Positions 880-5,452 of a stretch of DNA of 64,000 nucleotides are shown piece by piece. A program made the position numbers and the translations under genes. This DNA comes from Promethearchaeati archaeon SRVP18_Atabeyarchaeia-1. Lineage in GTDB: Archaea; Asgardarchaeota; Atabeyarchaeia; Atabeyarchaeales; Atabeyarchaeaceae. Under the pieces are notes generated by a model that worked only from the letters and a program-made list of their open reading frames with translations, had not been told where the DNA came from and did not search any database. The first letter of the stretch is position 1. Each line of letters starts with the position of its first letter. Where the stretch lies: positions 2,720,001-2,784,000 of the forward strand of contig CP147779.1 in assembly GCA_037308085.1 (NCBI GenBank). Direction: 5' to 3'.

Positions 880-1830
880 CTATACCTCTGACGGGGTCTC
901 TTCGAGCCGCGCTGTGAACTTGCCCTTTTGTCTACCGCGCACAACTGTCAAAGAGATCTCGTCGCCGACGTTCCTATCCTCGAGGTGCGCCACTAGGTCT
1001 GACATGGATTTGAGTTCAGAGCCCTCGACCTCAACAATGGAGTCGCCCGCCGCTATACCAGCCTCATATGCGGGACTGCCCCTAAGCACTCTTGCAACCA
1101 GTACACCCTTCGATACGCTGAGCTTGTAGTAGTTCGCTAGGCTGGTGGTGATGTCAACGCCCACCACGCCGAGCCATGGCCTCTTATATGATCCGTATTT
1201 CAGTACCCTGTTGAGAATTCTTTTCGCCGCGTTGATTGGTATTGCAAACCCTATGCCTTGAGCAAAGGGGATGATTGCAGTGTTAATGGCTATCACTTTC
1301 GCACCGATGTCTATCAGGGGACCCCCACTGTTACCGGGGTTGATGGCAGCATCGGTCTGCACAAGGTTCTCAAGGTTACCTCTATCAGATTGGATCGTTC
1401 TGCTTACGGCGCTTATCACCCCCTTCGTCACGGTGGCGCCGCCGGTCAGGCGGAAGGGAACACCTATTGCGATCACTGTCTGCCCGATTCTGAGGGTGTC
1501 TGAGTCGCCCAGCTCTGCCGCCGGCAGACCTTTGCCTTCAATCTTCAGGACAGCGCTGTCAATTGCTGGATCTTCTCCGACGACCTTGGCATCCAGAACC
1601 TTTCCATCAGGTGTCATTACCTGAATCCTTCTGGCGCCAGTGACAACGTGCCTGCTTGTGAGTATGTAGCCTTTTGAGTCGGCGATAAGGCCTGAGCCTA
1701 CTCCTTCAACAGGGTGAGCTCTGTAGAAGTAGTCCTCGACAAGTTGCACTGTGCTTACCATGACTGCACTCGGCAGGATCTTCTCACATGCCTTGATCAC
1801 TGCATCTTCTTCCGACAAGTTGGGATTCAC
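880..1830 (-). CDS. htrA: HtrA/DegP-like trypsin serine protease with C-terminal PDZ domain
   Basis: GSG, TSRHVV (His), DSAVLKI (Asp), QTDAAINPGNSGGPL (Ser), PDZ motifs WLGV and GSPAYEAGI; no obvious signal peptide. Confidence 0.95.
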   Translation of the reverse strand: MNPNLSEEDAVIKACEKILPSAVMVSTVQLVEDYFYRAHPVEGVGSGLIADSKGYILTSRHVVTGARRIQVMTPDGKVLDAKVVGEDPAIDSAVLKIEGKGLPAAELGDSDTLRIGQTVIAIGVPFRLTGGATVTKGVISAVSRTIQSDRGNLENLVQTDAAINPGNSGGPLIDIGAKVIAINTAIIPFAQGIGFAIPINAAKRILNRVLKYGSYKRPWLGVVGVDITTSLANYYKLSVSKGVLVARVLRGSPAYEAGIAAGDSIVEVEGSELKSMSDLVAHLEDRNVGDEISLTVVRGRQKGKFTARLEETPSEV

Positions 1831-2189: not shown

Positions 2190-3728
2190 GTGTTGTATAG
2201 CGAGAAAGTAATGGATCACTTCAGAAACCCACGCAACGTGGGGGAGATCAAGGACGCTGATGGAATCGGTAAGGTTGGAAATCCCGTTTGCCTAGCGGGG
2301 AACGAGAAGATCAATCTAAATGATACATTCATAGCGATTAGCAGAATCCCCGACGAAGAAGAAAGAGTTCTGGGTCATAATGGCGAATACAGCAATATAC
2401 TCAAGAAGTTTAGGAGAACGTATGACGGAGAAATCTTAACTCTAAGAAACAAACTCGGATCAGTTTCCTTGACACCAGAGCACCTTGTTCTGGCTGCGAA
2501 GCTCCCGAAGGGAGATAGGTTTCTCAGAACAAGTGGCAAAAAGACTCCATATCATGATTGGTATCACGCAAGCGAGTTAAAGAAAGGTGACATAGCTCTC
2601 TACCCGATCTTGAAGGAAGTAAGAGACGTTGACAACATCGAAATCGATGTGGGAAAATCAGAACATGATTTCAAGAGCAAAGAGATCCCAGGAATAATCC
2701 CCGTTAATGGAGACTTCCTGAGGCTTTGTGGGCTTTTCTTATCTGAAGGTCACGCAAGAGATGCCCCTTCAAAGACTTACATCGGCTTCACATTGAACCT
2801 CAAAGAGAAGGACATTGCTGAAGACATCAAGAATATTGCAGGAATGCTTTGGGGCATTGAACCCAAGACCAAAGAGAGAGCAAGAAGCCTTGAATTGTTC
2901 ATATACAATGCAACTCTGGCAAGATTCTTCAAGAAACTATTCGGAGTTCATGCAGAGCACAAGAAGATACCCCAGTTCATGATGATATTGCCCCCAGTGA
3001 AGCAAAGGGAATTGATAAGGGGACTTTGGCTTGGCGATGGCTACGTCAACCTCAAGAGGCAAACACCTCGGGCGGGCTACTCCACGATATCCTACCAATT
3101 GGCACAGCAGTTGAAGACGTTGCTGATGAGACAGAGAATCGTCCATTCTCTCTATATGGAACCGAAGAAGACAAAGAACGGAGTAATTCACAAAGAAGCA
3201 TATAGAATTCACATAGGTGACAAGGAATCATTGAGAAGACTCTGTGAAATCCTTGGAACTAAGTTCAACTACAATAGACCTGAAAAAGTTCATTCTTGGT
3301 TTGACACCAACTACTTCTACACTCCAATAACCCAAATTGAAAAGAGACATGTTGCAGCGGACATTTACAACCTTGAGGTTGAGAACAGTCACTCGTTCAC
3401 AGGTGAGGCATTCTGCTTTCATAACTGTGGCGACTTGATGTGGATCTACATCAAGGTCAGCAAGGATGCTAACGGTGTGGAGCGGCTATCAGATATAAAG
3501 TTTAAGACCTTTGGGTGTGGAGCAGCCATTGCTACCAGCAGTATGATAACGGAACTAGCTAGGGGGAAGACCTTGGAGGAAGCAATGAAAATCACGCGTG
3601 AAGATGTCGCATCAAGCTTAGATGGACTCCCTCCCATCAAAATGCATTGCAGCAATCTTGCCTCGGATGGGCTGAAGGCTGCAATCGAAGATTACTTGTC
3701 GAAGAAGAAGGCGGCAAAGAAGAACTAG
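2190..3728 (+). CDS. iscU: IscU/NifU-N Fe-S cluster scaffold protein interrupted by an intein (133 aa after splicing)
   Basis: YSEKVMDHFRNPRNVG...GNPV | intein | CGDLM...FKTFGCGAAIATSS...LPPIKMHCS; three Cys ligands and the LPPxK chaperone motif. Confidence 0.95.
   Translation: MLYSEKVMDHFRNPRNVGEIKDADGIGKVGNPVCLAGNEKINLNDTFIAISRIPDEEERVLGHNGEYSNILKKFRRTYDGEILTLRNKLGSVSLTPEHLVLAAKLPKGDRFLRTSGKKTPYHDWYHASELKKGDIALYPILKEVRDVDNIEIDVGKSEHDFKSKEIPGIIPVNGDFLRLCGLFLSEGHARDAPSKTYIGFTLNLKEKDIAEDIKNIAGMLWGIEPKTKERARSLELFIYNATLARFFKKLFGVHAEHKKIPQFMMILPPVKQRELIRGLWLGDGYVNLKRQTPRAGYSTISYQLAQQLKTLLMRQRIVHSLYMEPKKTKNGVIHKEAYRIHIGDKESLRRLCEILGTKFNYNRPEKVHSWFDTNYFYTPITQIEKRHVAADIYNLEVENSHSFTGEAFCFHNCGDLMWIYIKVSKDANGVERLSDIKFKTFGCGAAIATSSMITELARGKTLEEAMKITREDVASSLDGLPPIKMHCSNLASDGLKAAIEDYLSKKKAAKKN
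2289..3425 (+). mobile_element. Intein with LAGLIDADG homing endonuclease (379 aa) in IscU
   Basis: Block A CLAGNEKI (TGC at 2289), block B LTPEH, LAGLIDADG blocks LCGLFLSEG and LIRGLWLGDG, block F IYNLEVENSHSF, block G FHN followed by Cys+1 (TGT at 3426). Confidence 0.95.
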
Positions 3729-3771: not shown

Positions 3772-4839
3772 CTAGCCTCCGCTCGTGATTAGATTCATAA
3801 TCTCGTTGTATACGGCCATAGCCTCCTCATTGCTCTCGGCTCCTTTGACGAGCATGTTTCCCCCTCTCATTAGGCTGACCGAAATTCTATCGCTGAAGTT
3901 GAGTGTGACTCCGTAGCTCGCGATTACTTTCACCTTGAATTTCCTAGTTAGAATTTCGCCAGCTGACTTTATGTCAATTGGGGCTCCTTGGTTCTGGGTC
4001 ACCATGAAGCTTTCCCTGCCACAGAGCTCACTTATCTTACCGTCCTTGCCCTTTAGCGACATAGGCTCCGAGCCAGTGAGAGGGTTGGTGGCTTGCGCAC
4101 CACAGACCTTGCAGTCGATTCTCCTCGCCACGTTGAATACGTCAAAACTCACCGTGGCGAGGTCACAGTAGAGGATCTTGTTGGCCAGGAGAGGCTCTTC
4201 TTTCAATATCAACCGCAGAGTTTCGTTGACTTGGATGCTCGCAACCACGTTGATTATGGGAGGTATAACACCTACTCGTTCACATGTTGGAGTGATGGAA
4301 TCATCAGCGTTGTGGAACAAGCATTCGAGGCACGGCGTTTTGCCCGGGATTATGGTTGTGGCATTCCCGTAAGTTTCAATTGCCCCTCCAAAAACGTATG
4401 GCGTGTTCAACCTCACACATGCCTTGTTAACGGCGAATCTTGAGGAAAACCTGTCGAAGGCGTCTACAACAATGTCCATCCCCTTTACAATGTCTTCTGC
4501 ATTGTCCTCGTTGACGGAAGTTGCTATTGGGTCCACTTTCACGTTCGGGTTTAGGTCCTGAAGCCTCTTTGCCGCGATCTCGACCTTGGGGTACCCTATC
4601 GAGTGCACATCGTAGATCAACTGTCTTTGGAGATTTGTGGTTTCCACGACGTCCCTATCAACTATCCTGAGGTGACCCACGCCCATTCCCGCCAGCTGAA
4701 GCGATGAGACAGATCCCAGTCCTCCTAGCCCCATTACGCAAACCTTGGCAGACTTGACCTTGAGTTGTCCTCCCTCCCCGAAGTTGCGTAGGACAATCTG
4801 GCGGGAGTATCGTTCAAGCTCATCTTTGGTTAGCGGCAA
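3772..4839 (-). CDS. ThiF/MoeB/HesA family E1-like adenylyltransferase
   Basis: RYSRQI, GLGGLG, DRDVVETTNLQRQ, Zn motifs CLEC and CKVC, catalytic TC in PTCERVG, C-terminal LCGR extension. Confidence 0.92.
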   Translation of the reverse strand: MPLTKDELERYSRQIVLRNFGEGGQLKVKSAKVCVMGLGGLGSVSSLQLAGMGVGHLRIVDRDVVETTNLQRQLIYDVHSIGYPKVEIAAKRLQDLNPNVKVDPIATSVNEDNAEDIVKGMDIVVDAFDRFSSRFAVNKACVRLNTPYVFGGAIETYGNATTIIPGKTPCLECLFHNADDSITPTCERVGVIPPIINVVASIQVNETLRLILKEEPLLANKILYCDLATVSFDVFNVARRIDCKVCGAQATNPLTGSEPMSLKGKDGKISELCGRESFMVTQNQGAPIDIKSAGEILTRKFKVKVIASYGVTLNFSDRISVSLMRGGNMLVKGAESNEEAMAVYNEIMNLITSGG

Positions 4840-4845
4840 ACGAAT

Positions 4846-5412
4846 TCACTTCCATCTTTCAAAGAGTTTGTGTTCTATTCCCAAGGCATCGAGGATCTTA
4901 CCGATGGTGTAGTTGATTATATCGTCGAGTGTTCTTGGCCTATGGTAGAATGCAGGTACGGGCGGAAGTACCACCGCTCCTGCCTCAGACAATGTGAGCA
5001 TGTTTCTCAGGTGAATATTGCTCAATGGGGTTTCCCTGGGAACGACAATTAGTCTGCGTCTCTCCTTTAGGGCTACATCTGCTGCACGCGCGATGAGGTT
5101 ATCTGAGTAGCCGCTGGCAATAGAGGCAAGTGTTTTCATTGAGCACGGGACAATCACCATTCCATCAGTCAAAAAGGAGCCGCTGGCGATTGGAGCTGCA
5201 ATGTCTTCAGGCTCGAAGTACCGTGCCACTTTCTTCGATAGGGCTTCTGGTGTGGTTGAGGTCTCGAGCGCCAGTATCTTCTTGGCAGCGTCGCTAATTA
5301 CAAGGTATGTCTCAATATCCTCTTGGTACTGATGGAGGTACTCAACCATCTTGACGCCATAAATAACGCCAGATGTGCCTGTGATTGCTATTATCAGTCT
5401 CTTGACTACCAT
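4846..5412 (-). CDS. ubiX: Flavin prenyltransferase UbiX
   Basis: AITGTSG, IAAPIASGS, PCSMKTL, RAADVALKERR, PRETPL, PAFYHRP; start placed at ATG 5412 after GGAGG/GAGGG SD. Confidence 0.93.
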   Translation of the reverse strand: MVVKRLIIAITGTSGVIYGVKMVEYLHQYQEDIETYLVISDAAKKILALETSTTPEALSKKVARYFEPEDIAAPIASGSFLTDGMVIVPCSMKTLASIASGYSDNLIARAADVALKERRRLIVVPRETPLSNIHLRNMLTLSEAGAVVLPPVPAFYHRPRTLDDIINYTIGKILDALGIEHKLFERWK

Positions 5413-5452
5413 TCCCTCTATTCCTCCGACATACATGATACGTTGAGCATTT

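Follow-up and report, generated by a model that had tools for sequence, protein, structure and literature searches.

A LAGLIDADG intein directly ahead of the first Fe-S ligand cysteine of IscU in an Atabeyarchaeia archaeon, with signs of recent mobility

What does an intein do in the gene for an iron-sulfur (Fe-S) cluster scaffold, directly ahead of the first cluster-binding cysteine? The best-known inteins interrupt proteins that replicate or repair DNA, and the iscU gene of the Asgard archaeon Promethearchaeati archaeon SRVP18_Atabeyarchaeia-1 raises the question of whether such an insertion serves its host or itself. The gene lies in a stretch of 64,000 nucleotides, hereafter the window (contig CP147779.1 of assembly GCA_037308085.1, positions 2,720,001 to 2,784,000; feature coordinates below are window positions). 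A sequence-only reading of the window had proposed that a complete LAGLIDADG intein splits the GNPV|CGD motif of IscU, that it may act as a redox or metal switch on Fe-S biogenesis, and that it may also be an active homing element. Our analysis favors, with a probability of roughly 0.82, a selfish and recently mobile intein of canonical class-1 type, its LAGLIDADG homing endonuclease intact, in the sole IscU gene of the genome. Sequence comparisons give it the appearance of a mobile, selfish element and not that of a proven redox switch.

The precursor gene, encoding a scaffold of the NifU-N type, occupies 2190..3728 on the forward strand (512 codons plus stop), starts with GTG (alternative TTG at 2193) and has a reading frame that is uninterrupted through all 512 codons. 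The precursor of 512 amino acids (aa) consists of an N-extein of 33 aa (residues 1-33; 2190..2288, +) ending in GNPV, a class-1 intein of 379 aa (residues 34-412; 2289..3425, +) in which profiles, predicted fold and alignment place a HINT splicing domain and a LAGLIDADG homing endonuclease domain, and a C-extein of 100 aa (residues 413-512; 3426..3725, +). The splice junctions read ...GKVGNPV|CLAGNEK... and ...EAFCFHN|CGDLMWIYIK.... The Pfam profile NifU_N matched in two pieces (144.2 bits against a cutoff of 22), with the N-extein covering profile positions 2-34 and the C-extein positions 32-126, and the NCBIfam equivalog NifU_clost scored 180.6 bits, slightly below its cutoff of 187.9, in a match broken by the intein. 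The C-extein aligned with the archaeal IscU 7c8m across 95 residues (E-value 1e-39), placing C413, the +1 residue (codon 3426..3428, +), opposite Cys38. Cys38 of IscU (Cys37 in E. coli) is a cluster ligand. The proposal that the C-extein nucleophile is also the first cluster-binding Cys thus holds in this alignment. The remaining ligand residues, D415, C443, H486 and C487, were located in the C-extein by alignment; together with C413 they are invariant in a family alignment of 118 sequences (this protein and 117 metagenomic cluster representatives), and names of IscU variants in the Protein Data Bank (PDB), e.g. D40A/H106A, agree with this ligand set. By profile and alignment, then, the host protein is an IscU/NifU-N scaffold with the intein directly ahead of its first Fe-S ligand Cys.

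The intein itself appears complete. The N-terminal nucleophile C34 (codon 2289..2291, +) is invariant in 118 of 118 family members, as are T95 and H98 of the TxxH motif in block B (SLTPEHLVL; 2466..2492, +), the final H411 and N412 of blocks F and G (DIYNLEVENSHSF ... EAFCFHN; 3360..3425, +), and C413. The two LAGLIDADG helices end in GLFLSE186-G and GLWLGD283-G: motif 1 (LRLCGLFLSEGHA; 2718..2756, +) has an invariant acidic residue E186 followed by invariant G187, and motif 2 (LIRGLWLGDGYV; 3012..3047, +) has D283 in 117 of 118 sequences, with E in the remaining one, followed by invariant G284. Pfam LAGLIDADG_3, which covers motif 1, scored 66.3 bits (cutoff 22.5), and Hom_end also matched; Intein_splicing reached 26.7 bits, below its cutoff of 35.8. 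Among NCBIfam profiles, intein_Cterm was above its cutoff (20.1 against 15.6 bits) and intein_Nterm below its own, and several intein-containing proteins also resembled the precursor. Intein length was near constant, 377-415 aa, among the matches that could be split. An AlphaFold2 model built from the 118 sequences had a mean pLDDT (predicted local distance difference test) of 92.5, and in a Foldseek search its top matches were the intein-endonucleases TliVMA (7qsu), PI-SceI (1vde), PI-PkoII (2cw7) and PI-PfuI (1dq3), with IscU structures matching the extein portion ranked after them; a HINT fold is present in this model. Profiles, the 7c8m alignment, the model and Foldseek together bear out the proposal of a complete LAGLIDADG intein splitting GNPV|CGD. 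An artefact or an RNA-level intron can be ruled out by the open frame, the presence of all intein blocks and the occurrence of the same architecture in more than 100 independent assemblies.

By residue content, everything needed for four-step class-1 splicing and for a two-motif LAGLIDADG nuclease is present, and from these residues and the evolutionary pattern described below the intein probably has both activities. After translation of the precursor, Cys34 would make an N-S acyl shift, attack by Cys413 would give a branched intermediate, Asn412 would cyclise with His411 assisting, and an S-N shift would then join GNPV to CGD. The predicted products are a normal IscU of 133 aa, with the ligated junction peptide VGNPVCGDLMWIYIK, and a free nuclease of 379 aa. 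Intein-free iscU alleles would be the substrate of the nuclease, cut at the conserved sequence GGNAAYCCNGTN|TGYGGNGAY (a single cleavage is expected near GGAAAYCCNGTN|TGYGGNGAY), and repair of the break would insert a copy of the intein (homing). Across intein-free IscU genes of many archaea and bacteria the junction encodes an almost unchanged protein sequence, which would account for the wide host range of the intein. Placement in the ligand motif is what would be expected of a selfish element, and would also account for its persistence, because the target is indispensable and highly conserved and its imprecise deletion would be lethal. Under this model, the family would have acquired the intein horizontally, perhaps on more than one occasion, and some close relatives lack it.

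The evidence for such movement comes from the neighborhood of iscU. Conserved neighbors in the window, all on the reverse strand, are an HtrA-like serine protease gene with Trypsin_2 and PDZ domains upstream (880..1830), which served as a marker of host divergence, and a ThiF/MoeB-family gene (3772..4839) and a UbiX-type flavoprotein gene (4846..5436) downstream, which were used for a host-locus tree. The syntenic locus HtrA-IscU-ThiF-UbiX-LeuD-LeuC was gathered from two genomes of the family and nine metagenomic contigs, five of which bear the intein and four of which do not. The intein-free alleles encode proteins of 123-133 aa with an uninterrupted GNPV/I-CGD and 92-98% identity to the C-extein described here, so that the precursor minus its intein corresponds to a normal IscU. 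In the MoeB+UbiX tree, the genome holding the window (G000) pairs with an intein-free locus as its sister (100% support), the two MoeB proteins being 80% identical; a same-genus genome (G001) also has intein-free loci as its nearest relatives, and a third clade is mixed; intein-bearing and intein-free loci are thus interleaved in all three host-locus clades. The comparison of intein and host-locus trees that the sequence-only reading had called for gave mutually rejecting topologies: the intein alignment rejected the host topology (log-likelihood difference 132; approximately unbiased (AU) test, p = 4e-32), and the host alignment rejected the intein topology (AU p = 2e-7).

Proportions of synonymous differences (pS) point in the same direction. 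Between G000 and G001 the inteins have a pS of 0.43, and between G000 and the intein-bearing protein P0003 one of 0.37, about half the saturated values of the flanking htrA, moeB and ubiX genes in the same pairs (0.77-0.80), with the exteins near the saturated host level (0.69-0.73). The low values are not inherent to the intein sequence, because the inteins of G000 and G002, another genome of the family, form a saturated pair (pS 0.83). By this measure, the intein is younger than its host gene. Third-position identity between G000 and P0003 is 52-92% (mean about 74%) in bins within the intein and 44-60% in bins wholly inside the C-extein, with the drop at the C-terminal intein boundary, and by this profile the unit of transfer is the intein. 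Transfer of the whole iscU gene was also considered as a cause of the low divergence and is ruled out by the extein pS and the drop at the boundary.

A second intein lineage has, by tree placement, also entered the family. P0012 and P0004 have close hosts (MoeB 83% identical, exteins 98%), yet their inteins are just 55% identical, and in the 118-sequence tree the P0012 intein groups with those of P0019 and P0022, whose exteins fall outside the family. The remaining nine of the ten inteins in the family fall together in a single clade (support 1.0). That clade, and the finding that all three genomes of the family in the Genome Taxonomy Database (GTDB; G000, G001 and G002) carry the intein, could be taken to mean that the family ancestor already had it and that some lineages lost it precisely, without recent transfer. 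Such a purely vertical history is nevertheless very unlikely: branching of the inteins inside the clade contradicts the host locus by the AU test given above, their synonymous divergence is roughly half that of the flanking genes, the P0012 intein comes from another lineage, and the composition of the intein in G000 has not been ameliorated.

Composition had been raised in the sequence-only reading as a hint of foreign origin, from two sampled lines whose guanine plus cytosine (GC) counts, 21/60 at 3241-3300 and 29/60 at 3541-3600, proved exact. The hint holds for the full composition: GC content is 43.4% in the intein, 48.4% in the extein and 49.6% in the genome, placing the intein at the 0.9th percentile of 1137-bp genome windows. 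GC at third codon positions (GC3) is 50% in the intein, against 61% in moeB, 58% in the exteins and 52% in ubiX of G000; the intein value resembles that of inteins in the G001 clade, where the host genes are also GC-poorer. The intein has a ratio of nonsynonymous to synonymous divergence (dN/dS) of 0.16, its nuclease domain one of 0.14 and the exteins one of 0.03, and by this ratio the nuclease is kept under purifying selection. Tree incongruence, low synonymous divergence, interleaving, composition and a maintained nuclease together are, at the level of sequence, the pattern that a homing-cycle model predicts for an active element. The suggestion of active homing is in this way backed by population-level signs of recent horizontal movement in the trees, the pS values and the interleaved loci.

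How much depends on splicing can be judged from the rest of the genome. G000 is a closed, single contig of 2,808,651 bp that is 96.9% complete; a Pfam profile search of it found exactly one PF01592 locus, the iscU gene of the window, and a search for the SufBD core domain found none. G001 and G002 likewise have one IscU gene each and no SufBD was found in either, and two of the three family genomes are closed. Among the 41 genomes searched (G000 and 40 relatives from the phylum), 30 have SufBD. Because the genome has a single IscU and no SufBD, this organism probably cannot assemble Fe-S clusters de novo unless the precursor is spliced. The family appears to depend on a minimal IscS/IscU-type system alone. 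Candidates for the cysteine desulfurase are two Aminotran_5 matches (400 and 258 bits) at 1.443-1.446 Mb of G000, of putative IscS or NifS subtype; the best candidates lie about 1.28 Mb from iscU and are not adjacent to it.

Several observations weigh against an intact and recently mobile intein. The invariant residue at position 394 in block F (window 3369-3371; VYNL) is Asn across this intein family, and many class-1 inteins have Asp at that position (VYDL). The host tree was built on two neighboring genes, which might recombine themselves, and the metagenomic contigs are possibly strain mixtures. Furthermore, the intein of G001 has an in-frame TAA (L092:2266-2268; ..LAREFI*TRPEKV..) at a site that is TAC (Tyr) in G000 and CAT (His) in P0003, and gene callers divide the G001 iscU into open reading frames (ORFs) of 359 aa (P0013) and 147 aa (P0134). 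Since G001 has no second IscU and no SufBD, this stop may be either a decaying, lethal-looking lesion or an assembly or strain-mixture error. The TAA could also be read as a sign that the intein no longer splices, that iscU is a pseudogene and that Fe-S clusters are assembled by an unrecognised pathway, a route made conceivable by the missing SufBD. We consider such a dead insertion extremely improbable: the frame of the window is open across 512 codons, all splicing residues are invariant, the exteins are strongly constrained (dN/dS 0.03), and there is no other IscU or SufBD gene in the nearly complete, closed genome.

The dependence of Fe-S assembly on one interrupted gene also bears on whether the host uses the intein to gate Fe-S biogenesis by redox state or metals. 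Both splicing nucleophiles, C1 and C+1, are Cys, the +1 Cys doubles as a cluster ligand, and any block of splicing would have a global effect, with the intein-bearing IscU as the sole recognisable scaffold. A precedent exists in Mycobacterium tuberculosis, whose SufB intein is reported to be highly sensitive in its splicing to oxidation and to modification by reactive oxygen and nitrogen species (PMC6195587, citing Topilina et al. 2015). The cysteines in question here, to be compared with those of conditional inteins such as Mtu SufB and Msm DnaBi1, are C34, C413 and C409, the last being the additional Cys of FCFHN near the C-terminal junction to which the sequence-only reading had drawn attention. 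C409 is real, but it is conserved in only 101 of 118 family members, with S, A, T or I in its place in the other 17. Uninterrupted IscU in close relatives shows that the intein is dispensable, and horizontal movement with a conserved nuclease fits a selfish element better than a fixed, domesticated regulator. Redox inhibition through cysteines is, moreover, not universal even within class-1 inteins (PMC6195587).

On balance, use of the intein by the host as such a gate is unlikely. Equally doubtful is the specific form in which a Cys34-Cys413 disulfide, or Zn or Fe bound at the +1 Cys, holds IscU inactive until conditions become reducing; a disulfide or metal block is chemically possible, yet the evolutionary pattern does not favor it. 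Because the family lacks SUF, has a single IscU and uses the first Fe-S ligand as splicing nucleophile, one might go further and suppose that all de novo Fe-S assembly is conditional on a reduced, metal-free +1 Cys. An anaerobic Asgard archaeon would then check for oxygen or metal after translation, by means of an element that some lineages keep for its usefulness. This, too, seems improbable to us. The selfish, recently mobile intein remains the reading we prefer.

The insertion is not confined to this family. Among 5.8 billion protein clusters searched, 1059 matched with E-values of 0.001 or less, and each of the best 120 of these 1059 combined NifU_N with a LAGLIDADG domain. HN|CGD was found in every match that reached the C-terminal junction (P0013, which ends early, does not reach it), the N-terminal junctions inspected were GNPV|C, and the insertion site is common to all 117 other aligned cluster representatives. 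Named carriers include Pacearchaeota, Parcubacteria and one unclassified archaeon, and a Thermoplasmata genome was one match among the GTDB contigs. A whole-protein scan of those contigs gave mostly intein-free IscU, because the usable patterns fell in the exteins, and is no measure of intein frequency. Within the phylum, the IscU intein occurs in only 6 of 400 genomes, representing 2 families.

The sequence-only reading had tied the novelty of the site to whether it was already catalogued as common. The site is common in sequence databases, yet a literature search for inteins with IscU, NifU, iron-sulfur scaffold and Asgard found no description of an IscU/NifU intein. The Atabeyarchaeia genome papers, PMC11291895 among them, contain no occurrence of 'intein', 'IscU' or 'NifU', and the surveys of Asgard mobile elements in them do not mention inteins. 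What we describe is a homing intein of an ordinary type, in a host gene and at a site for which the searched literature yielded no published description.

Some further observations concern relatives of this gene and the rest of the genome. The intein-bearing IscU of a Parcubacteria (P0117; KKT26549.1) is named '2-oxoglutarate ferredoxin oxidoreductase subunit beta' at NCBI, probably a misannotation caused by the interrupted architecture. Annotation is thus affected in two ways, one relative's copy being called as two ORFs and the Parcubacteria copy being named an oxidoreductase subunit. An intein-free metagenomic IscU of 146 aa (P0135) contains one internal stretch of about 28 residues (SMVTELAKGKTLDEAMDITREDVAESLDG) two times in exact tandem, which may reflect either faulty assembly or a genuine duplication. 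At the intein-free locus closest to G000, a gene for a TnpB/Cas12f-like protein of 461 aa (L111:1408-2793; Pfam MJ0013 and Cas12f1-like_TNB) lies between HtrA and IscU and is absent from the window and the other loci. Elsewhere, G000 has about 10 further LAGLIDADG_3 domains within very long open frames (1169-1752 aa), with sites on its contig (C1) including 720664-720915, 724098-725954, 1474210-1474446, 1430409-1430573, 612148-612636, 658555-658704, 340133-340297 and 1030827-1031042; one frame of 1752 aa holds two such domains. These frames suggest that G000 carries many other inteins.

A +1 nucleophile that is also a metal-cluster ligand makes this locus a clean natural test of two competing accounts of why inteins occupy active sites, selfish targeting of conserved DNA and sensing by conditional splicing. 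Intein-bearing and intein-free alleles in the same neighborhood of close relatives provide matched natural controls, and the host offers an interrupted gene that appears to be its only scaffold. For uncultivated Asgard archaea, the locus could also serve as a case study of a homing cycle that is still under way.

Among known systems, the Mtu SufB (Pps1) intein invites a comparison of function. It is likewise a class-1 intein with Cys1, Cys+1, a penultimate His, a terminal Asn and an intact LAGLIDADG domain, is of similar size (359 aa, against 379 aa here), and interrupts a protein of the only Fe-S assembly pathway of its organism (PMC8891592); it is also a studied case of oxidation-sensitive splicing (PMC6195587). 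It differs in being bacterial and in having SufB of the SUF system as its host protein rather than the IscU scaffold, and its +1 Cys is not known to bind a cluster. Close sequence kinship between the two was not seen, and the NCBIfam and PDB sequence searches gave other inteins.

The best structural matches of the predicted precursor are VMA-type inteins (TliVMA, 7qsu/7qss; PI-SceI, 1vde/1lws), with Foldseek E-values of 3e-22 to 1e-15 and, for 7qsu, an E-value of 3e-22 and a TM-score of 0.76 by target. Like the precursor, they have a HINT domain into which a two-motif LAGLIDADG domain is inserted, but sequence identity is only 13-18%, their host is the catalytic subunit of the V/A-ATPase, and PI-SceI has an additional DNA-recognition region. 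By sequence, the closest solved structure is PI-PkoII (Thermococcus kodakarensis Pol intein 2, 2cw7; E-value 1.3e-7), with a similarity confined to about 145 residues of the endonuclease core, among them the KKIPxF and GDG segments; that intein is 537 aa long and inserted in a family-B DNA polymerase. For the host protein, C38, D40, H106 and C107 of 7c8m ('Nitrogen-fixing NifU domain protein') correspond to C413, D415, H486 and C487, whereas neither 7c8m nor the IscU of Archaeoglobus fulgidus (4eb5) contains an intein. The A. fulgidus protein was crystallised with its IscS partner; here, the desulfurase candidates are encoded about 1.28 Mb from the interrupted iscU gene.

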